A stretch of 25,826 nucleotides of DNA from Thermoleophilaceae bacterium (GCA_036258995.1 DATACN010000243.1:1-25826), one strand, 5' to 3'; counted from the stretch's first letter, positions 13,774-25,826 are shown. Numbers and translations are program-made. The notes: a model not told the origin generated them from the letters alone.

Positions 13774-14925
13774 TTACGCGCCCGAACCGACCCGCTCGTA
13801 CAGGTCGAGCAGGTGGCTGGTGAAGGGAGCCTGGGAGTGGCTCGCGCGGGCGCGCGCCAGCAGCTCCTCCCCGTCGGCGCGGCGGCGCTCGGGCGCCTCC
13901 CACAGCTCCCGCATACGGGCCGCGAGGGCCGCCGGATCGTTGATCGGCAGGCAGCGCTCCGGGCCGATCAGCTCCGGCAGGCCGCCCATTTGCGTGGCTA
14001 TCACGGGCAGGCCCGCGGCCATCGCCTCGAGCGCCGAGTAGGGCGAGAACTCGTGATAGCGGGAGGGCATCACGAGCATGGCCGCTCCCCTCACCAGCCC
14101 GTCCAGCTGCGGGCGGGCGAGCCGGCCCACGAGCTCGACCGGCGCGTCGAGCCGCCGGCCGAGCGCGGCGAGTTCCGCGGCGGCGGGCCCTTCGCCGGCG
14201 ATCCGCAGTGGAACGCCCGCCCGCCCCGCCGCCTCGATCGCCACGTCGAAGCCCTTCTCCTGCGACAGGCGCCCCGTCGCCAGCGCGTAGCCGCCGCGGT
14301 CGGCCGCCGAGCCGTCGGCGAACGCGCTCGCCGGCAGGTAGTGGGGCAGCACCTCGATCCGCTCCCGGGGCAGGCCGAGCAGCGCGAGCTGGCCTGCGGC
14401 GTAGCGGCTGGGGGCCACGAAGCGGTCCACGGCCTCGACCATGCTCGGCTGATAGAGCGACAGCGCGGCCGCGTAGACAGCGGCCTCCGGCAGCGAGCCG
14501 CGGCAGTTGAGCACCAAGCCGGGCAGGGTCAGACGCCCGTGGCAGCGGAAGCAGGGACCGCCGTCACGCGAGGCGACGCCGATGGCACAGAACAGGCGCA
14601 CGTTGTGAAGGTGCAGCACGACGCGGGCCCCGGCCTCGCGCGCGGCCGTCAGGCCGCGAGGACCGATCAGGGGGAGCGTGTTGTGGGCGTGGAGGACGGT
14701 CGCCCTCATCTCGCGCACGGCGGCGGCGATCTCCTCCGGCCGGTCGCCGCCCCCGAGGAGCGCGGCCGCCGCCCTCACCTTGCCGGCGTCCGCGGAGCTG
14801 CGCTGAAGAGCGCGGTGCTCGACCCCGGCGTTCTCGAGCGCCTCGAGCTGCAAGGCGACGGAGCGCTCCTCGCCGCCCTCGATCCGGTAGCGGTTGTGCA
14901 GCACGAGCACGCGTGGGGCGGCCAT
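13774..14925 (-). CDS. GT4 family (GT-B) glycosyltransferase
   Basis: VLVLHNRYRIEGGEE, VLHAHN, GRLSQEKG, PSRYHEFSPYSALEAMAAGLPVIATQMGGLPE (Ex7E); ends TAA TAG. Confidence 0.92.
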   Translation of the reverse strand: MAAPRVLVLHNRYRIEGGEERSVALQLEALENAGVEHRALQRSSADAGKVRAAAALLGGGDRPEEIAAAVREMRATVLHAHNTLPLIGPRGLTAAREAGARVVLHLHNVRLFCAIGVASRDGGPCFRCHGRLTLPGLVLNCRGSLPEAAVYAAALSLYQPSMVEAVDRFVAPSRYAAGQLALLGLPRERIEVLPHYLPASAFADGSAADRGGYALATGRLSQEKGFDVAIEAAGRAGVPLRIAGEGPAAAELAALGRRLDAPVELVGRLARPQLDGLVRGAAMLVMPSRYHEFSPYSALEAMAAGLPVIATQMGGLPELIGPERCLPINDPAALAARMRELWEAPERRRADGEELLARARASHSQAPFTSHLLDLYERVGSGA

Positions 14926-14935
14926 GGGGTCGGGC

Positions 14936-14942
14936 TAACCTA
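14936..14942. promoter_or_regulatory. Overlapping divergent -10 boxes TAACCT (+) / TAGGTT (-)
   Basis: 25-bp gap between ATG 14925 (-) and ATG 14951 (+) contains CTAACCTAAC; no SD on either side. Confidence 0.4.
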
Positions 14943-14950
14943 ACCGGCCC

Positions 14951-15793
14951 ATGGACGCGCCCGTGGTGTCAGTGGTGCTGCCCACGCGCGGGCGGGCCCG
15001 CTACCTCGAGGTCGCGCTCGACTCGCTCGACTCGCAGGACCTCGAGGAGCCCTGGGAGCTTCTGGTGGTCGACGACCGCTCGCAGGATGGAACCGCCGAC
15101 CTGCTGCGGCGCCGCGGCGTGCGCTCCCTACGCCTCGAGCCGCCCGGCGGGCTGAACGCGGCCCGCAACGCCGGCGTGCGCTCGACGAGCGGCGACCTGA
15201 TCGCGTTCACCGACGACGACGTGCGCGCGCCGTCCGGATGGCTGAGGGCGATCGTCGAGGGAGCCCGGCGACACCCCGAGGCCGATGCTTTCGGCGGCCC
15301 GATACGCGCCCGCTTCGAGGGACCTGCGCCGCGCGGCTGCGGCCGCGAGGACCCTCCGCTCACGACCCTCGACCTCGGCGAGGCGGACCGCCCGGCCGAG
15401 CTGGCCTGGGGAGCGAACATGGCCCTGCGCCGCGGCGCGTTCGCGCGGATAGGCCAGTTCGACGAGTCGATCCACGGCGGCGGTGACGAGCAGGAGTGGC
15501 TGGAGCGCCTGGCCGCCGACGGGGGGCGGCTGGTGTACCTGGCCGATGCCGCCCTGGAGCACCGCCGGGAGGGCGACGACGCCAGGCTCGTCCCGCTGGC
15601 CCGCGGGGCCTACGCCCGCGGACGCTCGATGCGCGCCTACGACAGCCGCCGCGGGCGCGCCCCCGGGGTGTCGCGAGAGCTGCGGGTGCTCGCGGGCTGC
15701 GGCTGGCACACGCTGCGCCGGGCGTGCCCGCAGGGGATCGTCATGGGCGCGCACGCGCTGGGCCGCACCGTCGAGGCGGTGCGGAAGCGGTGA
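14951..15793 (+). CDS. GT2 family glycosyltransferase
   Basis: VSVVLPTRGR, LLVVDDRSQDGT, NAARNAG, IAFTDDD (DxD), WGANMALRR, FDE..HGGGDEQEW. Confidence 0.92.
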   Translation: MDAPVVSVVLPTRGRARYLEVALDSLDSQDLEEPWELLVVDDRSQDGTADLLRRRGVRSLRLEPPGGLNAARNAGVRSTSGDLIAFTDDDVRAPSGWLRAIVEGARRHPEADAFGGPIRARFEGPAPRGCGREDPPLTTLDLGEADRPAELAWGANMALRRGAFARIGQFDESIHGGGDEQEWLERLAADGGRLVYLADAALEHRREGDDARLVPLARGAYARGRSMRAYDSRRGRAPGVSRELRVLAGCGWHTLRRACPQGIVMGAHALGRTVEAVRKR

Positions 15794-16674
15794 CCGCGGA
15801 GCCCCGGGCCGGCGAGCCGCCGCCACCCGAGCTCTTCCTCTCCGGCCGCGTGGGCTATACCGGCCGGCGGCGGGCGGTCGCGCTGCGCGCGGCGGACCGC
15901 GCACTCGACCTGTGGCTGCGGGCCCGCGGTGTGCCGCGCGAGCTCGACCGCCTCGCCGGGAGCGTCACGAGGCGCAAGGTGCTCGCGCTCTGCGTATACC
16001 GGCCCTCGGCGGAGCTCCTGCCCGCGATCGCCGGCGAACTGGAGGCGAGCCGCCACTCGCTGCGGCTCGCTCTCGGGTGCGTCGGCGACGCGCCACCGGA
16101 GTTGGCCGGGCGGACGGTCGCGGCCGGGCTGGACGGTGGCAAGTTCCAGAACCTCAACCGCCTACTGTCCGTCGCGGAGCCCGGCGAGCACGATTGGCTG
16201 CTGCTCGTGGACGACGACGTGGTGCTGCCAGGGCGCTTCGTCGACCGGCTGCTGGGCCTCTGCGAGGCGCTCGACCTGGCCCTCGCCCAGCCCGCTCAGA
16301 CACTGGCGAGCCACGGGGCCTGGCCCGTGACGCGCCGGCGCGCGCGGTCCTTGGCACGGGAGACCGGATTCGTCGAGATCGGACCCGTCACCGCGCTACG
16401 CCGGGACGCCTTCGCCGAGCTGACGCCGTTTCCGGACCTGCGCTACGGCTGGGGGCTCGACCTGCACTGGGCCGCCGTTGCCCGCGAGCGCGGCTGGCGG
16501 CTGGGCGTGCTGGACGCCCTGCCCGTGCGGCACGAGCAGGCGAGCGTCGCGGGGGAGTACGGCCACCAGGCCGCCGTCGACGAGGCCGCGGGCTTCCTCG
16601 CTTCGCGGCCGTTCGTTCCCGCGAAGGACGCGGCCCGGACGCTGGGCGTGCACCGGCGGTTGCCATGCGCGTAG
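15790..16674 (+). CDS. GT-A-fold glycosyltransferase-like protein, DUF707-like, 294 aa
   Basis: GTG 15790 overlaps upstream TGA; GKFQNLN, WLLLVDDDV (DxD), LAQPA, TGFVEIGPV, YGWGLD. Confidence 0.7.
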   Translation: MTAEPRAGEPPPPELFLSGRVGYTGRRRAVALRAADRALDLWLRARGVPRELDRLAGSVTRRKVLALCVYRPSAELLPAIAGELEASRHSLRLALGCVGDAPPELAGRTVAAGLDGGKFQNLNRLLSVAEPGEHDWLLLVDDDVVLPGRFVDRLLGLCEALDLALAQPAQTLASHGAWPVTRRRARSLARETGFVEIGPVTALRRDAFAELTPFPDLRYGWGLDLHWAAVARERGWRLGVLDALPVRHEQASVAGEYGHQAAVDEAAGFLASRPFVPAKDAARTLGVHRRLPCA

Positions 16675-17870
16675 CGGTGGTGGCCGAGTGGTACCCGTCG
16701 CCGGCCGATCCGGTCCTCGGCATCTGGGCTCATCGCCAGGCGGTCGCGGCCCGCGACGCCGGAGCCGACGTGCAGGTGCTCGCGATGCGGCGCCCCGTGC
16801 CTCCCCTCTCGGCCCTGCGCGCGCTCGCGGGCGGCCCGCCCGACGCGGCGCCGCTGCGGAGCTGGGCCACCGGAGTCGCCTCCACGCTCAGGTCCTGGGA
16901 GCTCGACGGCATCCCAGTACGGCCGGTGCCGTTCCTGAGCCCGCCGCGGCCGGGCTCCTACGGAAGCTGGGGCCACTGGATGGCGCCGCCGCTTGCGGTC
17001 GCGCTGGACCGGCTGCGGCGGACCTGGCCCTTCGATCTCGTGCACGCCCATTCGATCGTGCCCCCCGGCTACGCGGCTGCTCGCTGGACTCGGAACCCAC
17101 GGCGCCCGCCGCTCGTCGTGTCGGCGCACGGGCCCGACATGATCCACGTGCACAGGCGCAGCAGGCTCGCCGCGGCCGCGTCGCGGACCGCGCTGCGGGA
17201 GGCCGGCCTCGTGGTGGCCAACAGCCGCTGGGCAGAGGAGCGCTGCCGGGAGATCGCGGGCGCAGAGATCCGGTCGACGGTCGTGCACCTGGGCACCGAC
17301 GTCCCGCCGGGACCACCTCCGAAGCTCGAGCGGCCGACCCTGGTCACCGTCGCGCACCTCGTCGCCCGCAAGCGCCACTCCGTGGTGCTCCACGCCCTGG
17401 CCGAGCTGAGTCCGCGGCTCACGCCCGACTATCTGATCATCGGTGACGGCCCCGGCCGCCGGCCGCTCGAGCGGCTGGCCGGCGAGCTCGGCCTGGGCAG
17501 CCGGGTTCGCTTCGCGGGGCAGCTGGAGCACGAGCACGCGCTTGCGGAGGCGCGCCGCTGCCACCTGTTCGTCATGCCCGGCGTCGAGGAGCCGTTCGGC
17601 GTCGCGTTCGTCGAGGCCATGGCCGCGGGCCTGCCCGCCATCGGCGCCGTGGGCGAGGGCGGCCCCGAGGAGCTCGCAGCGGCGGGAGGCGGCATGCTGC
17701 TGGTCCCGCCCGACGACCACCGGGCGCTGGCCGCCGCCATCGACCGCGGGCTGTCGCAGTCGGAGGAGCTCGGTGAGGCTGCGCGCCAGAATGTGCGCGC
17801 CAGCTTCACCTGGGAGCGCTGCGGGCAGCGGACCATGGCCGCCTACCGGTCGGTGCTGGAGCGCGCGTGA
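16665..17870 (+). CDS. GT4 family glycosyltransferase (TuaC-like)
   Basis: ATG 16665: MRVAVVAEWYPS, DLVHAHS, VVSAHGPD, VAHLVARKRH, MPGVEEPFGVAFVEAMAAG. Confidence 0.9.
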   Translation: MRVAVVAEWYPSPADPVLGIWAHRQAVAARDAGADVQVLAMRRPVPPLSALRALAGGPPDAAPLRSWATGVASTLRSWELDGIPVRPVPFLSPPRPGSYGSWGHWMAPPLAVALDRLRRTWPFDLVHAHSIVPPGYAAARWTRNPRRPPLVVSAHGPDMIHVHRRSRLAAAASRTALREAGLVVANSRWAEERCREIAGAEIRSTVVHLGTDVPPGPPPKLERPTLVTVAHLVARKRHSVVLHALAELSPRLTPDYLIIGDGPGRRPLERLAGELGLGSRVRFAGQLEHEHALAEARRCHLFVMPGVEEPFGVAFVEAMAAGLPAIGAVGEGGPEELAAAGGGMLLVPPDDHRALAAAIDRGLSQSEELGEAARQNVRASFTWERCGQRTMAAYRSVLERA

Positions 17871-18916
17871 CCGACGTCCTCGTCGTATCGCTCGGGACGA
17901 CGCGTGGCCTGCGCGTCGCCGACTCGGCCTTCGCCGGCCAGGTCCGGGCCGCTGGGGCGAGCGTCGAGGTGATCGCCGTGCGCCAGGGGGCGCTCGGCCG
18001 CCTGCGCCGCGTCTACCCGGTCAACGACCTGGTCGAGGCCGCGGCCGCGCGCCGGGCCACGGCGAGCGCCGTTCGCAGGGTGCGGCCGCGCGCCGTGGTG
18101 TTCTCTTCGGTGACCTCGGCCATGATGGCGCCGCGCCTCGACGTGCCCTACGCGGTTCGGCTCGACTCGCCGGCCTCGCTCAACCGGCCGGGCCCGCAAA
18201 ACGCGGTGCTGCACGCGCTCGAGCGGCGGGCCCTGGCGGGCGCGCGGCTCGTGCTGCCGTGGAGTCGCGCCGCGCTCGCCGCCCTGCCCCCCGGCCTGCC
18301 GAGTGTGATCCTTCCGCCGCCGATCACGCCCTCCGGGGAGCACCCGTTCAAGCGCCGCCGGGCGGCCGCGGCATACGTGCCGGACCCGAAGGCGAAGGGA
18401 CTGGAGCTGCTGATCGCCGCCTGGTCCCACGCCGCGGCGGAGGACGCGGAGCTCGAGGTCTTCGGCATCGAGGCGGAGCGGGCCCGGGGTCACCTCGCGC
18501 GCACCGCCACGCAGGAGCCCGAAGGGGTGAGCTGGCGGGGCCTGACCCCGCCCGCCGAGTTCCGGGAGGCGCTCAGGAGCAGCCTGGTCTTCGCCTCGGC
18601 CGCGCGCTGGGAGGACTTCGGCCAGGCGCCCCTCGAGGCGCTCGCCGACGGCGCCCTGCTGGCGACGCTTCCCGCGGGCGGCGCGTACGAGGCGCTCGCC
18701 CTGGCGCGTGAGCTCGCGCCGGAGCTGGCCCCGGCCGACTTGACCCCCGAGGCCCTGGCGGGCGCCCTCGAGGCGGCATTCGCCATCAGCGCGGAGCGGG
18801 CCGCCGACTACCGCCAGCGGGCCGCCCGCGCCCTCGTCGCGTACAACCCGGCGAACCTCGAACGCACCGTGGCGGACGAAGTCCTCCCCGCGTTGCTCAG
18901 CGAGCGGTGGCCCTGA
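17867..18916 (+). CDS. Divergent GT4-like (GT-B) glycosyltransferase
   Basis: GTGA overlap with upstream gene; PDPKAKGLELLIAAW and ASAARWEDFGQAPLEALADG (Ex7E); atypical N-terminal domain. Confidence 0.75.
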   Translation: MTDVLVVSLGTTRGLRVADSAFAGQVRAAGASVEVIAVRQGALGRLRRVYPVNDLVEAAAARRATASAVRRVRPRAVVFSSVTSAMMAPRLDVPYAVRLDSPASLNRPGPQNAVLHALERRALAGARLVLPWSRAALAALPPGLPSVILPPPITPSGEHPFKRRRAAAAYVPDPKAKGLELLIAAWSHAAAEDAELEVFGIEAERARGHLARTATQEPEGVSWRGLTPPAEFREALRSSLVFASAARWEDFGQAPLEALADGALLATLPAGGAYEALALARELAPELAPADLTPEALAGALEAAFAISAERAADYRQRAARALVAYNPANLERTVADEVLPALLSERWP

Positions 18917-20012
18917 GCACCGCGCGCTCGAACGCCTCGGCGTCGGCGTCGGACGGATGGCGCTCGGTCACCGCCCGGCTGCCCGCGGCCAGCCGGGCAC
19001 GCAGCTCGCCGTCGCGCACGATCCGCCGCAGTGCGTCGGCGATCTGGCCCCTGTCGTGCGGGTCCACGAGCAAGGCGTTCTCGCCCTCGACGGCCACGTC
19101 GCCGACAGCGCCGGCCACCCGCGAGCAGATCAGCGGCAGCCCCGCCGCCGCGCCCTCCCGCATGGTCACGCCGAAGGGCTCGTAGGTGCTCACGAGCAGC
19201 AGCGCCCCCGCCTGCGCGTACAGCTCGGGGAGCTCGTCGGGCGACGCGTAGCCGTCGATCCGCACCGCAGCGCCCCGCTGCGCCGCCAGCTGCTTCAGCT
19301 CCTGCTCGAGCGGCCCGGTGCCCCTGAGCTCGAGCTCGGCCTCCCCCGGATCGAGCCCCGCGTCGGCGAACGCGTCGATCAGTGTGCCCAGGTTCTTGTC
19401 GGGCACGAGCCGGCCCACCGACAGCAGCTTCACCGGTCCGCCCTCCGGCGTGGAGCGCGACGCGGCCGCCCGCGCGAAGCGGTCGACGTCTGCGCTCTGG
19501 AGCGCCACCTCAACCCGGTCCGGCCCCACTCCCATCGCCTCCAGGCGCCGCCGGGCAGCCGAGCTGGCCACCACGAAGCCGGCCGCCCGCGAGGCCAGCA
19601 GGCCGTGGAGCCTGCGTCGTCGCGGCGACAGCTCGCGCTCGGCGTGCTCGGTGAGCTCGCTGAAGATCACCAGGGGCCGCCCTCGCAGGCGGCACCAGGC
19701 AAGCGCGCGGAGGGTCGCGGGGCCGTACTCCCAGCTCACAACGCAGTCCGGGCGGGCCGACCGCAAGGCGCCACCGAGCCCGCGCGGGACGATCATCGAG
19801 GAGCGGCCGGGCCTTCCCCGCTGCCAGGACCGGAGCGCCCGGGCCCTGTACCCGTGCTCGGCCGGAAACCACTCCGGCCGCTGGTCCCACCCCGGCTGGC
19901 CGCCGGCCTGGTAGATCACGATCGGCTCGATGCGGCCCCGCTCGGCCAGCCGCGCGAACAGCGGCTCCCGGTAGGGCACGGGGACCGGCGGGAGGATCGC
20001 GCAGCGCGGCAT
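18897..20012 (-). CDS. GT4 family glycosyltransferase
   Basis: Real part of ORF 18897..20933 from ATG 20012: PVPVPYREPLF, LLSVGRLVPDKN, STYEPFGVTMREGAAAGLPLICSRVAGA, EGENALLVDP. Confidence 0.9.
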   Translation of the reverse strand: MPRCAILPPVPVPYREPLFARLAERGRIEPIVIYQAGGQPGWDQRPEWFPAEHGYRARALRSWQRGRPGRSSMIVPRGLGGALRSARPDCVVSWEYGPATLRALAWCRLRGRPLVIFSELTEHAERELSPRRRRLHGLLASRAAGFVVASSAARRRLEAMGVGPDRVEVALQSADVDRFARAAASRSTPEGGPVKLLSVGRLVPDKNLGTLIDAFADAGLDPGEAELELRGTGPLEQELKQLAAQRGAAVRIDGYASPDELPELYAQAGALLLVSTYEPFGVTMREGAAAGLPLICSRVAGAVGDVAVEGENALLVDPHDRGQIADALRRIVRDGELRARLAAGSRAVTERHPSDADAEAFERAVLRATAR

Positions 20013-20090
20013 GGGCGCAACTTTCGCGCAAACCGGGGGATAAAGAAGCGAAGGCGAAATGGGGTCGGGAGACGGGACCGCCGCCGGGAT

Positions 20091-20108: not shown

Positions 20109-20204
20109 GGCTGGGAGGCGCTGTTCCCGGGCTTTCGCGCGAGCGAAGGCCAATTCTCTGCGCGCCCGCCCAGCCTGATGTTCCCAGCACCAGGAGGAAC
20201 TTCC
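20109..20204 (+). promoter_or_regulatory. Structured 5' leader with GNRA-capped hairpin and Shine-Dalgarno AGGAGG (20192-20197)
   Basis: Outer stem GGCTGGG-A-GGCGC (20109-20121) pairs with GCGCC-CG-CCCAGCC (20162-20175); inner GGCTTTCGC-[GCGA]-GCGAAGGCC (20130-20151); SD 10 nt before GTG 20208. Confidence 0.55.
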
Positions 20205-20207
20205 ACA

Positions 20208-20822
20208 GTGAGTCGCGTTGCATACTTGTCGATCCTCGCGGCGGCGCTGATTGCGCTGGCCGTTCCGCCTGCCGTGCAGGCGTCCGGGTTCGACGTGATC
20301 CGCGATTGCGCCGAGGACAGCGACCTGGATCGCAAGTACTCGAACGGTGAGCTCAAGCAGGCCAGGGACAACCTGCCTTCCGACCTCGACGAGTACAGCG
20401 ACTGCCGCGAGGTGATCAACAGCGCCATCACGAGCGGCTCCGGCGGGAGTGGCGGCGGCGGCGACGGTGGGTCGGGCGGAGGCGGGGCCGGCGGAGGGTC
20501 CGGCGGCTCCGGACCGAAGGCCGAAGCCGCGCGTGCGCGCGACGAGGCCGCGCTCGACGCTCTCACCAACGGCGGCGGCAAGCCCGCGCTGAACGTGGCC
20601 GGCACCAGGGTCGAGCCCGGTGACAACGGCCTGTTCGACCTCGCGAGCGCCGCCAACGGGCTGCCGTTGCCGCTCCTGCTCGCTCTGATCGCCGTCCTGC
20701 TGGGCGCGGCGACCGCCGGGCTCGCCGCGCTGAGCCGCCGTTTCCCGGGGCTGGCCGAGCGCATACCCCTGCTGTCCAAGATAAGCCTGCCGCGTGTCCC
20801 GATCCCGGGTCTCCGCCGCTAG
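20208..20822 (+). CDS. Exported, C-terminally membrane-anchored protein with Cys pair and Gly/Ser linker, 204 aa
   Basis: GTG 20208 with strong SD; signal peptide ...LAAALIALAVPPAVQA; C-x31-C acidic helical domain; Gly/Ser linker; NGLPLP then hydrophobic helix then basic tail. Confidence 0.75.
   Translation: MSRVAYLSILAAALIALAVPPAVQASGFDVIRDCAEDSDLDRKYSNGELKQARDNLPSDLDEYSDCREVINSAITSGSGGSGGGGDGGSGGGGAGGGSGGSGPKAEAARARDEAALDALTNGGGKPALNVAGTRVEPGDNGLFDLASAANGLPLPLLLALIAVLLGAATAGLAALSRRFPGLAERIPLLSKISLPRVPIPGLRR
20433..20513 (+). repeat. Low-complexity Gly/Ser linker (27 codons: SGSGGSGGGGDGGSGGGGAGGGSGGSG)
   Basis: Read directly from the translation; codons are diversified (GGC/GGG/GGT/GGA), so this is protein-level rather than DNA tandem repetition. 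Confidence 0.85.
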
Positions 20823-22848
20823 CGCCATACTGCTCGGCGCCGCGCTCGCCGGCGTCGCCTTCGGAGCCGCCGGCGGAACCGTCCTGCACCGGACGGTCTG
20901 GGTAGAGATCCTGATCGTCCTTGCGGGCGGCACGGCCGTCGGGGTCGCTGTGCTGTACGCGCGCCGTGGGCCTCTCTACGGCGCCACCTCCCTCGTCGCC
21001 TTCGGCGTCCTCACCGCGGTGACGGCCCTCTCGGTCACCTGGTCGATCGTGCCCGAGCTGTCCTACGTGGAGGCCGGGCGGATGCTCGCCTATCTGGCCG
21101 CGTTCGCGGCGGCGGTCGCCGCTGCGCACCTCGCCCCGCCGGCCTCGCCGGTGGTCCTGCGGGGGGTGGCCCTCGGCGCACTCGCGGTCGTGATCTACGC
21201 ACTGGCATCGCGGGTCTGGCCCGGTGCGCTCGCCGAGAACGAGCTGTCCAACCGCATCGGCCAGCCGTACGGCTACTGGAACGCGGTCGGCACCACCGCG
21301 GCGCTCGCGGTCCCGGCCCTGCTCTGGCTCGGAGCGCGACGGGCCGGCAGCGTGGCGGGGCGGGCGCTCGCATATCCCGCGCTCGGCCTGTGCGTGGTTG
21401 CGATCCTGCTCACCCAGTCCCGCGGCGCGCTGGCGGCGGCCGTCATCGGTGCCGTGGCGTGGCTGGCGATCGTCCCGCTCAGGCTGCGAAGCGTGCCGGT
21501 GCTGGCGCTGCCGGCCCTGGCCGCCGCGCCCGTCGGAGCCTGGGCGCTGTCGAAGGACGCCTTCTCTGAGAGCCTCCAGCCCCTGGCCGTCAAGGAGAGC
21601 GTCGCGGGCGAGTTCGCCGGCCTGCTGGTGCTGATGGTCGCCGTGCTGCTCGTGGCAGGCCTGGCGGTCAACCTCGGGCTCGCCCGCGCCGCCCCGTCCG
21701 TGCGGATACGGCGCCGCGTCGGCGTCGTGGCGCTGGCGGCGGCCTGCGCGATCCCGCTCGCGCTCTTCACTTCCGTCGCGTTCAGCGACCGCGGTCTCGG
21801 CGGAACGATCGAGGACCGCGTCGACGAGCTGACGAGCGAGACGAACTCGGCCCCGGCCGAGGGCGGCGGGCGCCTGACCGCGGCCTCCTCCACGCGCGGC
21901 AAGTACTGGCGAGAAGCGGGGCGGATCTTCGACGACCGGCCGGGCCTCGGCGCCGGCTCCGGCACCTTCGGCGTCGCTCGCCTGCGCTACCGCAAGGACG
22001 AGCTCGTGTCGCGCCACGCCCACGGCTACGTGGCCCAGACGCTGGCCGACACCGGCCTGCTCGGGCTGGCGGCATCGCTGTTCCTCCTGATCGCCTGGCT
22101 GGCGGCAGCGGCGCGCACGACCGGCCTGTACCCGCGCTGGCGGCGCTTCGGCGCGAGGTTCCGGCGGCGCGACTGGGACGGCGAGCGCGTGGCGCTCGTC
22201 GCGCTCGCGCTCGTGGCGATCGTGTTCGGGCTCCAGTCCGTAATCGACTGGACCTGGTTCGTGCCCGGGCCGGCGGTCATGGCAGTCGTCGCCGCGGGCT
22301 TCGTGGTGGGCCGGGGGCCGGTCGGGCTCGCCGAGGCGCCGCGTCCCAACCTGACCGAGCTCCGGCAGCCGGAGCGAAAGCGGACTCTTGCCGCCGTGGG
22401 CGTCCTCGTCTGCGCGTTCCTCTTCGCCTGGGCCATATGGCAGCCGGAGGCGTCCGACAACGCCTCGGAGGAGGCCCTCCGCCTGAGCCAGTCCGGCCAG
22501 ACCGCAGCGGCGCTCGACGAGGCGCGCTCCGCCGCTGACGTCAATCCGCTCTCGCCCCGGCCGCTGCTGGTCGAGGCCGCCGTCCAGGCGCGCGCAGGCG
22601 ACGAGGGCGCAGCACGCCGGGCGCTCGAGCGGGCCGTGCTGCGCTTCCCGGGCGATCCTCAGACCTGGCTGCGTCTGGCGAGCTTCGAGCTCGGCACCCT
22701 CGAGCGGCCGCGCAAGGCCCTCGGGACGCTCGAGGCCGTGCTCTACCTGGATCCGTTCTCGAAGGCGGCGCGCGACCTCTACCTGCAGGCCCGCGCGGCC
22801 GAGCGAGCGCAGGCTCGAGCGTCCTCGCGTCCGGCGGCCCGCCGCTAG
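20794..22848 (+). CDS. O-antigen ligase/polymerase (Wzy_C) family membrane protein with C-terminal TPR-like domain
   Basis: About 12 TM helices; RIGQPYGYWNA, LLTQSRGA, STRGKYW...PGLGAGSGTF, HAHGYVAQTLADTGLLG; soluble helical repeat tail (AALDEARSAADVNP, RALERAVLRFP, EAVLYLDP). Confidence 0.85.
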   Translation: MSRSRVSAASAILLGAALAGVAFGAAGGTVLHRTVWVEILIVLAGGTAVGVAVLYARRGPLYGATSLVAFGVLTAVTALSVTWSIVPELSYVEAGRMLAYLAAFAAAVAAAHLAPPASPVVLRGVALGALAVVIYALASRVWPGALAENELSNRIGQPYGYWNAVGTTAALAVPALLWLGARRAGSVAGRALAYPALGLCVVAILLTQSRGALAAAVIGAVAWLAIVPLRLRSVPVLALPALAAAPVGAWALSKDAFSESLQPLAVKESVAGEFAGLLVLMVAVLLVAGLAVNLGLARAAPSVRIRRRVGVVALAAACAIPLALFTSVAFSDRGLGGTIEDRVDELTSETNSAPAEGGGRLTAASSTRGKYWREAGRIFDDRPGLGAGSGTFGVARLRYRKDELVSRHAHGYVAQTLADTGLLGLAASLFLLIAWLAAAARTTGLYPRWRRFGARFRRRDWDGERVALVALALVAIVFGLQSVIDWTWFVPGPAVMAVVAAGFVVGRGPVGLAEAPRPNLTELRQPERKRTLAAVGVLVCAFLFAWAIWQPEASDNASEEALRLSQSGQTAAALDEARSAADVNPLSPRPLLVEAAVQARAGDEGAARRALERAVLRFPGDPQTWLRLASFELGTLERPRKALGTLEAVLYLDPFSKAARDLYLQARAAERAQARASSRPAARR

Positions 22849-23426
22849 CGGCGGGCGAGCGCCAGCAGGCTGCCGCGCCGGCGGCGCAGCGACGCCACCT
22901 CGAAGCCAAGCTCCGACAGCAGCCGCCTCAGCGAGCGTCTTGTGAGGAAGCGGATGTGGGGCGAAAGCGGTGGGAACCGGCTCTCGAAGCCGCCGACCAG
23001 GATCGCGAGGCCGTCGAGCCTGCCGTGGGCAGGCGTCGTCAGCGCGAGTGTTCCCACCGGGCGCAGCACCCGCCTGATCTCGGACAGCAGCAGCTGCACG
23101 TCGCGCACGTGCTCGACCGTCTCTACGCAGAGGACGAGGTCGAACTCGCCGTCGCCGAACGGCAACGGCGAGTCGGGCTCGAGCTCGCACACGCGGGCTC
23201 CCGGAAGCCGCCGCCGGGCGCGCTCCAGCGCGACCGGTGACACGTCCGCCGCCGTCAGCTCGCCGGCGCCGAGCTCGGCCGTCAGGCGCCCGTCGCCGCA
23301 GCCGAGATCGAGCGCCCGCTCGGCCGGGCCGAGCGAGCGCACGAACTCGCGCAGGTGCTCGGGCGGCAGGTGCGCGTGCTCGCCCACGAGCTCCCAGAGC
23401 TCGTCGTCGTAGCGGCTGGGGGTCAC
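22845..23426 (-). CDS. Class I SAM-dependent methyltransferase (Methyltransf_11-like)
   Basis: ALDLGCGDG, AADVSPVAL, LPFGDGEFDLVLCVETVEH, RVLRPVG; GTGA-coupled to upstream methyltransferase. Confidence 0.9.
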   Translation of the reverse strand: MTPSRYDDELWELVGEHAHLPPEHLREFVRSLGPAERALDLGCGDGRLTAELGAGELTAADVSPVALERARRRLPGARVCELEPDSPLPFGDGEFDLVLCVETVEHVRDVQLLLSEIRRVLRPVGTLALTTPAHGRLDGLAILVGGFESRFPPLSPHIRFLTRRSLRRLLSELGFEVASLRRRRGSLLALARR

Positions 23427-24159: not shown

Positions 24160-24801
24160 ATGCGCCGACTGGCCCTGTTCATCGCGCTGGCGTTCGTCCT
24201 CGCCGCCCCCGCCTGGGGGTTCGTCGCGCCCATCACCCGCGACGCGAACCTCGACGGCGACCCGGGTACCGAGCGGATCCTGGTTCGCCCCCACCGCCCC
24301 ACCGACGCCCAGGACGACTTCGAGCGCACCCAGGTGCGCGTGCGCGACACCTGCCCGCCCGGGACGGTCGACCGCCGGATCGCTCCGATCCACGACAACC
24401 TCGAGCGGCTGCGCCTGCGCCGCGTCGACCGGCGGCCGGGGGCCGAGATCTTCCTCGTGCTGCGCGACGGCGCCCGCGGCGTGCTCGGCGAGGCGCGGCT
24501 GGTCGCCTGGCGCCCCGACCCCGCCGCCTGCCGCAGGGAGAAGGCGCTGTTCGTCTACGACAGCGACCGCCACACGGCCACGCCGCGGGGCGGAACCGGC
24601 GACATCTCGTTCTTCAACGCGCGCTTCACCGACCGCGAGGACCGCTTCGACGGACCGGAGATCCTCGTGGACGAGCGCTTCCTGCGCCGGGGCGATCCCC
24701 CCTTCGCGGGGTCGATCCGGAAGTTGACCTTCTGGCGATACCACCTCGGGCGCGACCGCTACGTGCGCTACGACGCGAGGGTCATTCGCTCCGGTCGCTG
24801 A
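24160..24801 (+). CDS. Hypothetical secreted protein with degenerate FG-GAP/VCBS-like DxDG..xEI repeats
   Basis: Signal peptide MRRLALFIALAFVLAAPAWG; repeats DANLDGDPGTERIL, RVDRRPGAEIFL, DRFDGPEILV; two Cys. Confidence 0.7.
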   Translation: MRRLALFIALAFVLAAPAWGFVAPITRDANLDGDPGTERILVRPHRPTDAQDDFERTQVRVRDTCPPGTVDRRIAPIHDNLERLRLRRVDRRPGAEIFLVLRDGARGVLGEARLVAWRPDPAACRREKALFVYDSDRHTATPRGGTGDISFFNARFTDREDRFDGPEILVDERFLRRGDPPFAGSIRKLTFWRYHLGRDRYVRYDARVIRSGR

Positions 24802-24811
24802 GCCTCGGGGA

Positions 24812-25519
24812 GTGCCCGAGCCGCCCACCCCGCGGGAGTCCGTCTACGGCGCCGCCCGGCAGGGCCTGCGCACCAGGCTGGCGGAGCGGTTCGCGCGGCG
24901 GGCCCGCGAGCGCCGCGCCGGGCTCTTTCGCCGGCTGATCGACCCCCGGCCGGGAGAGCGGATCGTCGACGTCGGCTGCGGAGAGGCCGGCCTGGCCGCG
25001 CATCTGGGCGGCAACGAGATCACGGGCGTGGACCTGGTCGAGCGGCCCGGCTACGCCGGCCCGAACCGGAGGTTCGTCCGCGCCGATGCGCGCGAGCTCC
25101 CCTTCGCCGACGGCGAGTTCGAGATCGCCTACTCCAACTCGCTGATCGAGCACGTCGGCGGCCCGCGGGACCGCGAGCGGGTCGCGGCCGAGCTGCGCCG
25201 CGTCGGCCGGCGCTACTTCGTGCAGACGCCGAACCGCTGGTTCCCTGTGGAGCCGCACTCCCTGCTGCCGCTCGTCCACCTGCTGCCGCGCCGGATGGGT
25301 CGGCGGCTGTGGCGCTTCGGGGTCTCGGACGACCCCTTCGAGGACACCTGGCTGCTCGTAGCGCGCGACCTGCGCAAGCTGTTCCCCGACGCCCTGATCG
25401 TGCGCGAGCGGGTCGGGCCGCTCACGAAATCTCTTGTGGCCGCCGGCCCGAAGGAGGCGCTGGCTACCAGGCGCCGCGCGCCCGGACCACGGCCGGGACC
25501 GTCTTCAGCAGGATCGTGA
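24812..25519 (+). CDS. Class I SAM-dependent methyltransferase
   Basis: IVDVGCG, ITGVDL, ADARELPFADGEFEIAYSNSLIEHVG, YFVQTPNRWFPVEPH. Confidence 0.9.
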   Translation: MPEPPTPRESVYGAARQGLRTRLAERFARRARERRAGLFRRLIDPRPGERIVDVGCGEAGLAAHLGGNEITGVDLVERPGYAGPNRRFVRADARELPFADGEFEIAYSNSLIEHVGGPRDRERVAAELRRVGRRYFVQTPNRWFPVEPHSLLPLVHLLPRRMGRRLWRFGVSDDPFEDTWLLVARDLRKLFPDALIVRERVGPLTKSLVAAGPKEALATRRRAPGPRPGPSSAGS

Positions 25520-25826
25520 GGTCGAGGAAGATCGACCAGCGCTCGAGGTAGAGGAAGTCCAGGCGCACCAGCTCGTCGAAGTCGAGCTCCGAGCGACCCG
25601 AGACCTGCCAGAGCCCCGTCATGCCGGGCATCACCAGATAGCGCTTGCGGTGCCAGTCCTCGAGGCGCTGGTAGTCGCGCTGCGGCAGCGGCCGCGGGCC
25701 CACAAGCGACATCTGGCCGCGCAGCACGTTGAACAGCTGCGGCAGCTCGTCGAGCGACCAGCGGCGCAGGAAGCGGCCCACGCTCGTGACGCGCGGGTCG
25801 GAGCGCATCTTGAACAGCGGCCCCGC
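25464..25826 (-). CDS. Polyprenyl-phosphate sugar phosphotransferase (Bac_transf; WcaJ/CpsE/RfbP family), 5'-truncated
   Basis: [46 protein letters not shown]...[13 protein letters not shown]...[21 protein letters not shown]. Confidence 0.95.

Follow-up and report, generated by a model that had tools for sequence, protein, structure and literature searches.

What does a small exported protein do when its gene runs into that of a polytopic Wzy_C-family enzyme in the middle of a glycan locus? The question is raised by a 25,826-nucleotide stretch of DNA from a Thermoleophilaceae bacterium, here called the window, whose genome we refer to as G000. A preliminary description of the window noted the gene pair and proposed en-bloc transfer of a lipid-linked glycan to the small protein. 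We followed up that proposal computationally, and all of the elements described for the two open reading frames are present at their positions. Here we ask how tightly the two genes are bound to each other, what kind of enzyme the larger one encodes, and whether the smaller protein is better understood as its substrate or as its subunit.

The gene pair lies in a Wzx-dependent glycan locus

The setting is that of a Wzx-dependent glycan locus, as had been proposed. The window encodes two Wzx-type flippases, RmlB, RmlC, WecG/TagA and a UDP-sugar dehydrogenase, together with five to six glycosyltransferases, methyltransferases and, at its end, a Bac_transf initiating transferase. Upstream of the pair, a glycosyltransferase block (13774..20033, mixed strands) is conserved by tblastn synteny in 10 related genomes and consists, by Pfam assignment, of GT4 (13774-14925, minus strand), GT2 (14951-15793, plus), DUF707-like (15790-16674, plus), GT4 (16599-17870, plus), GT1-like (17867-18916, plus) and GT4 (18897-20033, minus) genes. 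A methyltransferase gene (22845..23426, minus; Pfam Methyltransf_11) adjoins the pair and is syntenic in relatives. Also syntenic in relatives, near the pair, is the Bac_transf initiating phosphoglycosyl transferase gene (25464..25826, minus; Pfam 2.8e-43), which is cut by the window end and shares 75-84% identity with its counterparts.

The small gene and the enzyme gene form a conserved pair

The end of the small gene overlaps the start of the enzyme gene by 29 bp (20794..20822, plus), an arrangement indicative of translational coupling. Among 19 usable orthologue pairs other than the window's own, 14 overlap by 8-52 bp and the other five are separated by gaps of 49-100 bp. Synteny in relatives, on which the preliminary description had staked its proposal beforehand, holds very widely: the small gene lies directly upstream of the enzyme gene on the same strand at 77 of 80 species-representative loci, and the remaining three have no upstream DNA, so that the count is 77 of 77 testable loci. 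Within the order, 41 genomes were compared: the small gene accompanies the enzyme orthologue (E < 1e-85) in 27 of 28, the single exception sitting at a contig edge, and both are missing from 11 genomes that have only enzyme paralogues.

The association extends through the class Thermoleophilia, where an HMM of the small protein has matches in 98 of 151 genomes. Of 40 small-gene loci sampled there, 29 have a full-length Wzy_C-TPR gene within about 0.6 kb, and three gene orders occur: the small gene may precede the large one, follow it or diverge from it. Genome G039 carries a second, diverged pair, and tandem copies of the small protein occur adjoining one enzyme; fusions of the small protein to the enzyme were not found, which is weak evidence. 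Members of the small-protein family also adjoin a PMT_2 GT-C enzyme, Wzx flippases, a phosphoglycosyl transferase or GDP-sugar genes, and some are near flippase/sugar-nucleotide genes with no Wzy_C-TPR gene nearby.

The two genes are thus a dedicated, conserved pair and not a product of chance. That they are neighbours without any particular functional tie is strongly disfavoured: the sole support for this view is that envelope genes tend to crowd together in glycan loci, and it would have to accommodate the adjacency at every testable locus, the shared presence and absence across the order, the persistence as neighbours through rearrangements across the class, and a complex model that supports binding (see below).

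The enzyme model has a WaaL-like fold with an outward TPR domain

The enzyme (684 aa; 20794..22848, plus) matches Wzy_C (PF04932) at residues 281-427 (2.6e-11; 43.9 bits against a cut-off of 31.7), a match recovered by the whole-genome scan too, and TPR_14 at residues 591-630 (23.9 bits against a cut-off of 23.5). The preliminary description had looked to PglL_A and Wzy_C_2 for a comparison, and this yielded nothing: neither family matches the enzyme in a Pfam scan at E <= 0.01, which returned Wzy_C and TPR families alone. We count this against reading the pair as a transferase and its carrier. The same motifs are absent from TfpO and TfpM too (PMC12645811).

In the AF2 model (pLDDT 88, pTM 0.90), residues 1-513 (20794..22332, plus) form a 12-TM, WaaL-fold GT-C core, in agreement with the earlier description of a Wzy_C-family enzyme with a TPR-like tail. 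WaaL (7TPG, chain 7tpg_B) is the best structural match (VIA-align Z 21.3, rmsd 4.8, 384/403 residues, model residues 4-513; Foldseek E 3e-5 to the WaaL fold), although identity is only about 15-17% and phmmer gave no sequence-level match. Common to both enzymes are 12 TM helices and, in an outer loop, conserved His and Arg; the window enzyme has in addition a thirteenth TM helix and a TPR domain. TM13 (residues 528-550; 22375..22443, plus) is part of an AF2 helix at 528-566 and comes after the 12-TM core, and so places the C-terminal TPR domain outside the cell. That domain (residues 549-680; 22444..22836, plus) has three repeats, aligns to TPR domains at Z 17-18, and gives PDB profile matches to consensus TPR proteins. 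It contains a P619-x-x-P-E-T-W625-L-R-L motif specific to orthologues that have the small-protein partner; W625 and L628 are invariant among orthologues, but not in the G000 paralogues C18, C105 and C29.

An extracytoplasmic loop, R400..H408-A-H410-G..Q415..D419 (21991..22050, plus), is marked by invariant columns of the enzyme alignment and, with its invariant His and Arg, is a putative catalytic or diphosphate-binding site. Residues R210, R230, R360, R368, R400 and H410 are invariant among orthologues, and H410 is retained in the paralogues of G000. These may be the counterparts of the conserved Arg/Arg/His in the extracytoplasmic loops of E. coli WaaL (R215/R288/H338) and of PglL (R224/R298/H349; PMC3643930). 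We count the WaaL fold, the invariant His410 and Arg residues, the placing of the TPR outside the cell by TM13, and the Wzy_C-TPR combination reported for WsfB and PglL in favour of a ligase-like enzyme, and we infer that its role is that of a ligase rather than a polymerase.

The enzyme could instead be the Wzy-type polymerase of the Wzx-dependent polysaccharide, with the small protein as a minimal co-polymerase-like or primer cofactor. Genuine polymerases do fall within Pfam Wzy_C, and the window, with its two Wzx flippases, holds no other polytopic candidate, nor do the conserved 20-kb regions of relatives; both facts are also counted against the reading as a ligase with a carrier. Of the four TPR-type paralogues in G000, three (C18, C29 and C243) lie beside a Bac_transf gene, as would be expected if each locus had its own polymerase. 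We nevertheless consider a polymerase unlikely, given that the nearest solved fold is that of the ligase WaaL, with an invariant outer-loop His, and that the five to six glycosyltransferases and the methyltransferases could make an unpolymerised oligosaccharide. An outward-facing TPR domain that grips a protein domain is, to our knowledge, not a feature of Wzy enzymes. The window also has no Wzz/PCP gene. The two PCP genes of G000 lie away from it and adjoin different Wzy_C genes, which are shorter, score higher in Pfam and are the likelier polymerases of this genome. Wzy and Wzz do resemble the modelled window pair, in that a polytopic superfamily enzyme is complexed with a bitopic-type partner (PMC10030265); however, Wzz is an octamer-forming PF02706 protein with two TM helices, traits of which the small protein shows none, and the latter has a cleavable-looking signal peptide in place of the two-TM PCP topology.

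Architecture of the small protein

The small ORF (20208..20822, plus; 204 aa) encodes an exported bitopic protein and begins with GTG at 20208; an ATG at 20178 would give 214 aa, and both gene callers and the orthologue alignment prefer the 20208 start. It matches no Pfam or NCBIfam family, and every one of its 351 metagenomic homologues is annotated 'hypothetical'. A hydrophobic segment at residues 1-25 (20208..20282, plus) is a predicted signal peptide with an AxA cleavage motif (AVQA followed by S), in which A23 and A25 are nearly invariant. Two identities were tried and rejected: Wzz/PCP, for want of a PF02706, other Pfam or NCBIfam match and because of the AxA signal peptide, and type IV pilin, for want of a pilin family match and because of the Sec-type signal peptide and C-terminal TM helix.

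Residues 26-77 (20283..20438, plus) form a conserved three-helix domain in the AF2 model (helices 28-37, 46-55 and 61-77; pLDDT about 84). Its cysteines C34 and C66 are spaced C-x31-C by direct count, and this spacing is present in 118 of 119 close homologues. The class-wide signature of the domain comprises D33, [DN]37-G38, D41, Y44-[ST]45, A52, D59 and Y63; among diverse homologues D33 is present without exception (60 of 60) and Y63 almost so (58 of 59), a conservation that could reflect a purely folding or binding role. A structure search found no clear fold relative for the domain (best Z 5.6).

A Gly/Ser-rich linker follows (residues 78-102; 20439..20513, plus), predicted to be disordered (AF2 pLDDT <50), and then a module made of a helix (103-121) and a beta-hairpin (128-135) in the AF2 model (20514..20627, plus). 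This module carries a conserved P-x-v-x-v-g-G-x-x-v-x-P-G motif and is confined to the long form found in the window's order, the short forms being without it. The juxtamembrane motif L152-P153-L-P155 (within NGLPLP; 20661..20672, plus), whose P153 is invariant in the orthologue alignment, leads into a C-terminal TM helix supported by hydropathy and AF2 (residues 154-178, then SRR; 20667..20741, plus) and a basic cytoplasmic tail of 26 residues (20742..20819, plus). The last codons of the tail overlap the enzyme gene; its length differs among orthologues and is greater than is typical of sorting signals.

The Ser-containing Gly linker, a prominent feature of the preliminary description, does not hold up across the class. 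It varies in length and composition and in many class-level homologues shrinks to 3-8 residues, sometimes with no Ser or Thr, so it cannot be the universal acceptor. The only positionally conserved Ser/Thr of the small protein are S26, the first residue past the predicted signal-peptide cleavage, and S45 and S58, both helix N-caps. We count the scarcity of such residues, as well as the absence of the linker from many homologues, against a role as glycan carrier.

Predicted complex of the small protein and the enzyme

Modelling of the complex, envisaged in the preliminary description, supports physical binding of the small protein to the enzyme, with an ipSAE of 0.84 (0.79-0.85 across runs) against 0.00 for the best of three controls. 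Of 80 solved complexes, 58 come up to this ipSAE mark, as do 2 of 110 mismatched pairs; since the alignments were our own, the calibration applies only roughly here. Contacts agree between runs to 82% or more, and the pLDDT of the partner does not fall below 68. In the model, the TM helix of the small protein packs on enzyme TM3, TM4 and TM13, and its helical domain lies against the TPR domain. The lowest-error contacts link the TM helix to enzyme residues 71-101 and 540-547, and TM13 contacts the same helix through residues 539-550. With about 270-310 contacts, the interface is predicted to be very large; it takes in nearly the whole mature small protein except the Gly/Ser linker. Residues 53-65, the most conserved stretch, which includes Y63, fall entirely within it, as do one face of the helix-hairpin module and, on the enzyme side, the orthologue-specific TPR motif 619-628 and many other TPR residues. 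Loop residues 404-408 of the enzyme also contact the small protein.

An interface of this size, together with translational coupling, is more like that of a permanent subunit than that of a transient substrate. The small protein may accordingly be no substrate at all but a permanent accessory subunit that stabilises, activates or gates the enzyme or selects its acceptor, in which case the glycan would go elsewhere: to a glycolipid (as with TacL), to the cell wall or to proteins other than this one. RodA-PBP2, in which a polytopic glycosyltransferase is served by a bitopic partner, offers a parallel. The model fits such a subunit well, being extensive and high-scoring, with TM-TM packing as its most confident part. 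The overlapping stop and start of most orthologue pairs point to stoichiometric co-expression, the two genes co-occur strictly one to one, and the conserved residues are in the interface and not in the linker, which has no positionally conserved Ser or Thr. We still judge a non-substrate subunit to be possible but somewhat unlikely. It does not account for family members beside unrelated PMT_2 GT-C or flippase/sugar-nucleotide genes with no Wzy_C-TPR gene nearby, or for tandem paralogues beside one enzyme, and the failure to find fusions speaks weakly against it. Moreover, the sortase signals of sister families, described next, would cut the domain off from its TM helix, a poor fit with a permanent subunit docked through that helix.

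Sister families carry sortase signals

Homologues of the small protein in sister families are roughly 125 aa long and end in [LF]PFTG-TM-RR, a sortase signal, with LPFTG, FPFTG, LAFTG or LMFTG immediately before the TM helix. Fifteen of 53 class-level homologues are minimal, consisting of the signal peptide, the domain and then [LF][PAMS]FTG-TM-RR. These sortase-signal homologues are new here. A sortase is encoded in 5 of 5 genomes checked and in G000, which has one, and at least one G000 protein (C209) ends in LPFTG-TM-RRLIR.

The likeness of the window protein's C-terminus to a sorting signal, pointed out earlier, therefore stands in part. NGLPLP, the TM helix and SRR are all present, and LPLP occupies the position of [LF]PFTG in the sister families; however, the motif reads L-P-L-P-L, with the Thr-Gly of an LPXTG-type pentapeptide missing, and 26 residues continue past SRR where LPXTG substrates have a short basic terminal tail. 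The LPLP-TM-SRR tail is a decayed form of the sortase signal. Were it still active, a sortase or another enzyme would cleave the mature protein and link it to the wall. The alignment with [LF]PFTG, the sortase and C209 protein of G000, and the LPxT motifs and short tails kept by some orthologues (e.g., L027 and L030) are compatible with activity, which we consider quite improbable in view of the lost Thr-Gly, the 26 residues beyond the basic cluster, and the confidence of the predicted interface, which is highest at the TM helix. Nor did other xLPxP-TM-basic tails emerge as a group: a coding-frame scan of G000 gave eight loosely similar C-termini and no shared LPxP family.

Discussion

Our best reading of the pair, to which we assign a probability of about 0.42, is that of a ligase resembling O-oligosaccharyltransferases that has a carrier protein of its own. 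We regard the conservation of the pair, the fold and the topology as shown; binding is supported by the model. The glycan of the locus, linked to undecaprenyl diphosphate, would first be flipped across the membrane, and the WaaL-fold (GT-C) enzyme would perform the last step by moving it onto an acceptor. The small protein, held in the model both by its TM helix on TM3/TM4/TM13 and by its helical domain on the outward TPR, is the proposed acceptor. Its glycosylation would probably occur at a linker or juxtamembrane Ser/Thr or at the near-invariant Tyr63 and would yield a surface glycan anchored to protein. In sister families with [LF]PFTG-TM-RR a sortase would pass this product to the cell wall; in the window lineage, since LPLP is all that is left of the sorting motif, it would remain membrane-bound.

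In weighing this reading we counted for it the conservation of the pair, the binding model, the ligase-like enzyme, the minimal sortase-signal homologues, the varied glycan neighbours and the tandem copies beside one enzyme. A protein that is due to lose its TM helix and become attached to the wall is more readily understood as a substrate than as a lasting part of the enzyme. Precedents in which the acceptor gene adjoins that of the transferase (TfpO, TfpM and PglS; GspA-LcpA-SrtA) were counted likewise.

The acceptors of TfpO, TfpM and PglS are encoded beside their transferases (PMC3643930, PMC12645811). TfpO/PilO-PilA, PglS-ComP, TfpM and PglL are, like the window enzyme, Wzy_C/WaaL-like GT-C systems (PMC3643930, PMC12645811). 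The acceptor genes of TfpO, PglS and TfpM are adjacent and co-oriented, as is the candidate-acceptor gene here; in these systems the acceptor is a small, exported protein with a single TM helix in the membrane, and the Und-PP-linked donor comes from a Wzx-type locus, as is proposed for the window pair. The window differs in that the organism is a monoderm actinobacterium (Thermoleophilia, soil), that the partner is no pilin, belongs to no Pfam family and has a cleavable N-terminal signal and a C-terminal TM helix, and that the enzyme has a clear three-repeat TPR domain and neither PglL_A nor Wzy_C_2, unlike PglL and PglS. The acceptor role of the partner is a prediction from sequence and model.

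WsfB, a predicted O-oligosaccharyltransferase of the Paenibacillus alvei S-layer glycosylation locus, and PglL are likewise reported to combine Wzy_C with a C-terminal TPR (PMC2943079). WsfB and the likewise predicted WsaB+WsaA system of Geobacillus stearothermophilus belong to Gram-positive hosts and are likened to the window pair by architecture and setting. Like the window enzyme, they lie inside a glycan locus that includes rhamnose and ManNAc-type genes. The TPR is fused in WsfB, as here, whereas WsaA is a separate small TPR protein encoded just upstream of WsaB; the small protein encoded upstream in the window has no TPR and is predicted to be the ligand of one. The acceptor of WsfB/WsaB is a large S-layer protein, against a 20-kDa bitopic candidate here. 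SpaA of P. alvei is glycosylated on Tyr, and Tyr, Ser and Thr O-linkages are known (PMC2943079).

Glycan transfer to an adjacently encoded surface protein is not foreign to actinobacteria. In Actinomyces oris, LcpA transfers glycan from a polyprenyl-PP donor to GspA, a sortase substrate encoded next to it, ahead of wall anchoring (PMC6381275), which qualifies the earlier statement that such a mode is not established in this phylum, although LcpA is an LCP phosphotransferase and not a Wzy_C GT-C enzyme. In GspA-LcpA-SrtA, too, a small sortase-substrate protein is encoded beside its glycopolymer-loading enzyme, and the sister-family homologues share this logic of a sorting signal plus an adjacent glycan transferase. 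The window protein has lost the TG of the motif, and it is likened to GspA by arrangement.

For TacL we know of no dedicated small protein partner or TPR. TacL is reported to be a Wzy_C-family enzyme and the lipoteichoic-acid ligase of Streptococcus pneumoniae (PMC5727136), so non-LPS acceptors exist in a monoderm; the premise that a monoderm offers no acceptor for a WaaL was too strong. The TacL acceptor is a glycolipid, as opposed to the candidate protein acceptor here, and the two enzymes are likened by family.

If our reading of the pair is true, the surface sugar chain made by this locus would most likely be hung on a protein anchor and not on a lipid.

Conserved gene pair within a glycan biosynthesis locus

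The small protein and the Wzy_C-TPR enzyme are encoded in a high-GC (~72-77%) glycan biosynthesis locus, by an ORF with a GTG start at 20208-20822 (+; 204 aa, or 214 aa from an ATG at 20178) and an ORF at 20794-22848 (+; 684 aa), which overlap by 29 bp. The pairing remarked on in the preliminary description holds up in relatives: among the best 80 species-representative loci, collected with the enzyme alignment and all from Thermoleophilaceae or Solirubrobacterales MAGs, the small gene lies immediately upstream of the enzyme gene and on the same strand in 77, and the remaining three have no upstream DNA. Across 41 genomes of the order, the two orthologues are present or absent together (co-occurrence 27/28, the single exception being a contig edge), and the 11 genomes that carry only paralogues of the enzyme contain neither. 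The genes overlap by 8-52 bp in 14 of 19 usable orthologue pairs and are separated by 49-100 bp in the other five.

The pair sits in a conserved block of genes in the order GT4, GT2, DUF707-like, GT4, pair, methyltransferase and Bac_transf, of which the DUF707-like gene (15790-16674, +) is syntenic in 9/10 related genomes examined, at 45-61% identity. Downstream, between methyltransferase genes, a 213-aa ORF (24160-24801, +; GC3 0.94) encodes a hydrophobic segment resembling a signal at the N terminus and is unmatched in Pfam and NCBIfam. Some relatives encode a single-TM protein of 480-550 aa directly after the enzyme gene (L036:11633-13087, +, with a DUF3089 match; L040:11357-13021, +, with no match), a gene absent from the window. 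In a single-contig genome (G023:C1:1111033-1113061), the enzyme orthologue was matched as four consecutive pieces in different frames, pointing to a pseudogene with frameshifts or to errors in long reads; the upstream small gene is undisrupted.

Beyond the order, an HMM of the small protein matches 98 of the 151 genomes of the class. We examined 40 class-wide loci with 4-kb flanks, and in 29 a full-length Wzy_C-TPR gene lies within ~0.6 kb of the small gene, in three different arrangements, so that adjacency survives rearrangement. Among the ten remaining loci, the neighbours of the small gene are Wzx flippases, a phosphoglycosyl transferase or GDP-mannose dehydratase/epimerase genes in nine, and the tenth (L086) is ambiguous. 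In six loci (L069, L071, L073, L075, L085 and L094) the homologue is flanked by a malic-enzyme-like gene on one side and a GDP-mannose 4,6-dehydratase/epimerase pair on the other, and the surrounding 4 kb contain no Wzy_C-TPR gene. Fusions suggested by long open frames near class-level matches were dismissed as high-GC artefacts, the genes being separate and often divergent; a search for fused small protein-enzyme sequences returned one 589-aa match, which shares the helical domain only and has no Wzy_C.

A WaaL-like enzyme with a C-terminal TPR domain

Whether a WaaL-like (Wzy_C) enzyme is a ligase, a polymerase or a protein O-oligosaccharyltransferase is notoriously difficult to decide, and to our knowledge the acceptors of such enzymes are essentially unknown in monoderms outside Firmicutes. 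The enzyme matches Wzy_C above the gathering score as well as TPR_14, and its AF2 model, built from 20 orthologues, is confident (pLDDT 88, pTM 0.90). Its residues 4-513 take the fold of the O-antigen ligase WaaL (superposition on 7tpg_B: Z 21.3, rmsd 4.8, 384/403 residues; Foldseek E 3e-5), and a TPR of three repeats spans residues 549-680 (Z 17-18, with PDB profile matches). An extra modelled helix (528-566) following the 12-TM core should place this TPR outside the cell, which bears out the earlier reasoning about the domain. Sequence searches were less informative: the Pfam scan detected neither PglL_A nor Wzy_C_2 motifs, phmmer with the enzyme core found no WaaL match among PDB sequences, and a profile search against the PDB returned TPR proteins only. 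Invariant residues are grouped in the outer loops (PYGYWN 158-163; R360, R368 and R400; H408-A-H410-G; D485-W-x-W). It is well supported that the enzyme is a transferase of the WaaL fold bearing a protein-binding domain outside the cell.

The window's own genome (G000) has seven Wzy_C genes, the others lying at C330:2577-5691, C99:1914-6971, C18:9000-10979, C105:9279-11228, C29:2-1990 and C379:12481-13812. Four encode a C-terminal TPR (the window's own on C243, and those on C18, C105 and C29) and the C379 protein has none; no neighbour similar to the small protein was seen beside the C18, C105, C29 and C379 paralogues. The TPR motif P619-x-x-P-E-T-W625-L-R-L is invariant in partner-bearing orthologues and not in the TPR-bearing paralogues of this genome. 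Two shorter Wzy_C genes each lie 3-5 kb from a Wzz-type polysaccharide co-polymerase gene and probably encode true polymerases. That the window enzyme is itself the polymerase is compatible with the lack of any other Wzy candidate in the locus, but both co-polymerase genes of the genome accompany the shorter Wzy_C genes, and we consider this role improbable. A flippase or ABC exporter was sought within 20 kb in the conserved core of relatives and none was found, a result that does not discriminate between ligase and polymerase.

Anatomy and family of the small protein

The small protein begins with a signal peptide (AVQA/S) and two Cys separated by 31 residues; a Gly/Ser run, a helix with a hairpin and NGLPLP follow, after which a TM helix leads into SRR. 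This agrees with the preliminary description except at the C terminus, where a tail of 26 residues past SRR exceeds the motif-TM-basic ending given there. The protein has no Pfam or NCBIfam family match, an Atlas feature search retrieved unnamed actinobacterial clusters only, and a fold search with its model was uninformative, the top match (Z 5.6) covering a generic three-helix bundle.

In an alignment of 60 diverse homologues, the universal parts are the signal peptide, a helical domain of ~50 residues and, at the C terminus, a TM helix accompanied by basic residues. The helical domain conserves D33 (60/60), Y63 (58/59), Y44 and [DN]-G. Neither the Cys pair nor the linker is universal; in many homologues the latter shrinks to 3-8 residues, in some cases including neither Ser nor Thr, and the proposal that the Gly/Ser linker is the glycan acceptor is accordingly not supported. 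The conserved hydroxyl residues are S26 at the signal-peptide cleavage site, two helix N-caps and Y63/Y44, and no other stands out. Residues 33-48 (20283-20438) follow a class-wide motif, D-x-x-x-[DN]-G-x-[LI]-[DN]-G-x-[YW]-[ST]-x-x-[ED], loosely like a calcium-binding loop followed by a helix; an EF-hand-like reading of its first part (D-x-x-x-[DN]-G-x-[LI]-[DN]-G) was rejected, as the position-3 and position-12 ligands are missing and Pfam gives no match.

Tandem arrangements also occur (L058:1248-1895, -; L059:1277-2470; L060:957-2358): one homologue has two copies of the helical domain, and two loci have two small-protein genes beside one divergent Wzy_C-TPR gene. In genus g25, a short homologue (143 or 154 aa) with a signal peptide, Cys domain, Gly run and LPTP-TM-RRRR tail, and no helix or hairpin, is encoded 12-14 bp downstream of a PMT_2-family GT-C gene (product ~530 aa) and is followed by ispG (L046:7094-9143 in G026; L048:9038-~11100 in G031); within the same genome, the Wzy_C-TPR orthologue (L047:8605-10653) has no small neighbour.

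Sortase signals among small-protein homologues

The resemblance to a C-terminal sorting signal proved well founded. Among 53 class-level homologues, 15 are preproteins of ~125 aa whose C terminus consists of [LF][PAMS]FTG, then hydrophobic residues and a final RR, which is, judged by sequence, a canonical sortase sorting signal; the [LF]PFTG version is exemplified by loci L078, L089 and L094. A sortase is encoded in all five such genomes checked, and also in G000. That relatives of the small protein are destined for the cell wall is well supported, and L152-P153-L-P155, at the same position as [LF]PFTG, is most plausibly a sorting signal that has decayed. The search for further xLPxP-TM-basic tails proposed earlier yielded only eight loose matches in the coding frames of G000, with no shared signal, so a new lineage-wide LPxP sorting signal was rejected. 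PEP-CTERM/exosortase was likewise discarded, the only match being a weak one to TIGR03097 (26 bits vs a cut-off of 188). A 444-aa frame of the same genome (C209:2-1334, -) finishes with GGLPFTG-TM-RRLIR, a canonical sortase signal that shares LPFTG with sister-family small proteins; C279:1371-1733 (+) is grouped with this observation, and the genome has a single sortase gene.

Predicted complex of the two proteins

We modelled the mature small protein with the enzyme using paired alignments and three controls. The complex reached an ipSAE of 0.84 (0.79-0.85 across runs) vs 0.00 for the best control; 58 of 80 solved complexes and 2 of 110 mismatched pairs reach the same mark, counts that are only rough here because our own alignments were used. 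The runs shared at least 82% of contacts, with partner pLDDT of at least 68. The most confident contacts join the partner TM helix to enzyme TM3, TM4 and TM13, while the helical domain (especially 53-65), helix 108-121 and the hairpin are predicted to touch the TPR and outer loops 148-164, 404-408 and 486-490, leaving the Gly/Ser linker free. The model supports, and does not prove, binding of the small protein to the enzyme; a dedicated partnership, probably physical, is well supported.

Possible carrier protein or accessory subunit

We favour, at a probability of roughly 0.4, an O-oligosaccharyltransferase-like ligase acting with its own carrier protein, since sortase-substrate homologues could not stay TM-docked as subunits, the family accompanies different glycan enzymes, tandem small-protein copies occur and close precedents exist. 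TfpO, PglS and TfpM are encoded beside their acceptors (PMC3643930, PMC12645811), as the candidate acceptor is here; WsfB, whose host has the Tyr-glycosylated protein SpaA, and PglL combine Wzy_C with TPR (PMC2943079), as does the window enzyme; and in Actinomyces oris LcpA, encoded next to the sortase substrate GspA, glycosylates this protein prior to wall anchoring (PMC6381275), recalling the sister-family small proteins that have a sortase signal and a neighbouring glycan enzyme gene. GspA-LcpA also weakens the earlier premise that actinobacteria use PMT-type glycosylation only, and TacL, reported as the lipoteichoic-acid ligase of S. pneumoniae (PMC5727136), weakens the argument that a ligase would serve no purpose in a monoderm.

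The scarcity of conserved hydroxyls counts against a carrier. The very extensive predicted interface and the tight coupling of the genes make a permanent accessory subunit a serious rival, though a less likely one, and the sortase-substrate homologues, which could not remain TM-docked, oppose it.

The carrier reading extends to a fuller and less likely proposal. Thermoleophilia would anchor a surface glycan via a dedicated mini carrier protein, as diderms use lipid A-core; the external TPR of the WaaL-fold ligase would recognise the small helical domain of the carrier, to which the flipped glycan would be attached. The near-invariant Tyr63 may be the attachment site, which would represent tyrosine O-glycosylation outside Firmicutes. 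Anchoring would have switched in evolution between two modes: sortase would link the [LF]PFTG forms to the wall, and the LPLP forms, including that of the window, would stay permanently in the membrane within a stable enzyme-carrier complex.

An O-oligosaccharyltransferase or ligase with a dedicated partner is of a known kind; we found no description of this gene pair or small-protein family in the literature, homologue annotations or Atlas feature search, and no relevant literature on glycosylation in Thermoleophilia. The class-wide pair, the confident interface model and the evolutionary series from sortase-anchored to membrane-retained partner make a concrete candidate. Were the small protein a subunit instead, WaaL-fold enzymes would gain their first described accessory subunit. 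If the fuller proposal is true, Actinomycetota would have their first protein O-glycosylation system of the Wzy_C type, along with a new glycan carrier family. If the small protein is the acceptor, the pair would represent a new carrier-protein family with a new O-oligosaccharyltransferase class, offer a compact enzyme and sequon-domain pair for glycoengineering, and explain how surface glycans are attached in deep-branching soil actinobacteria.
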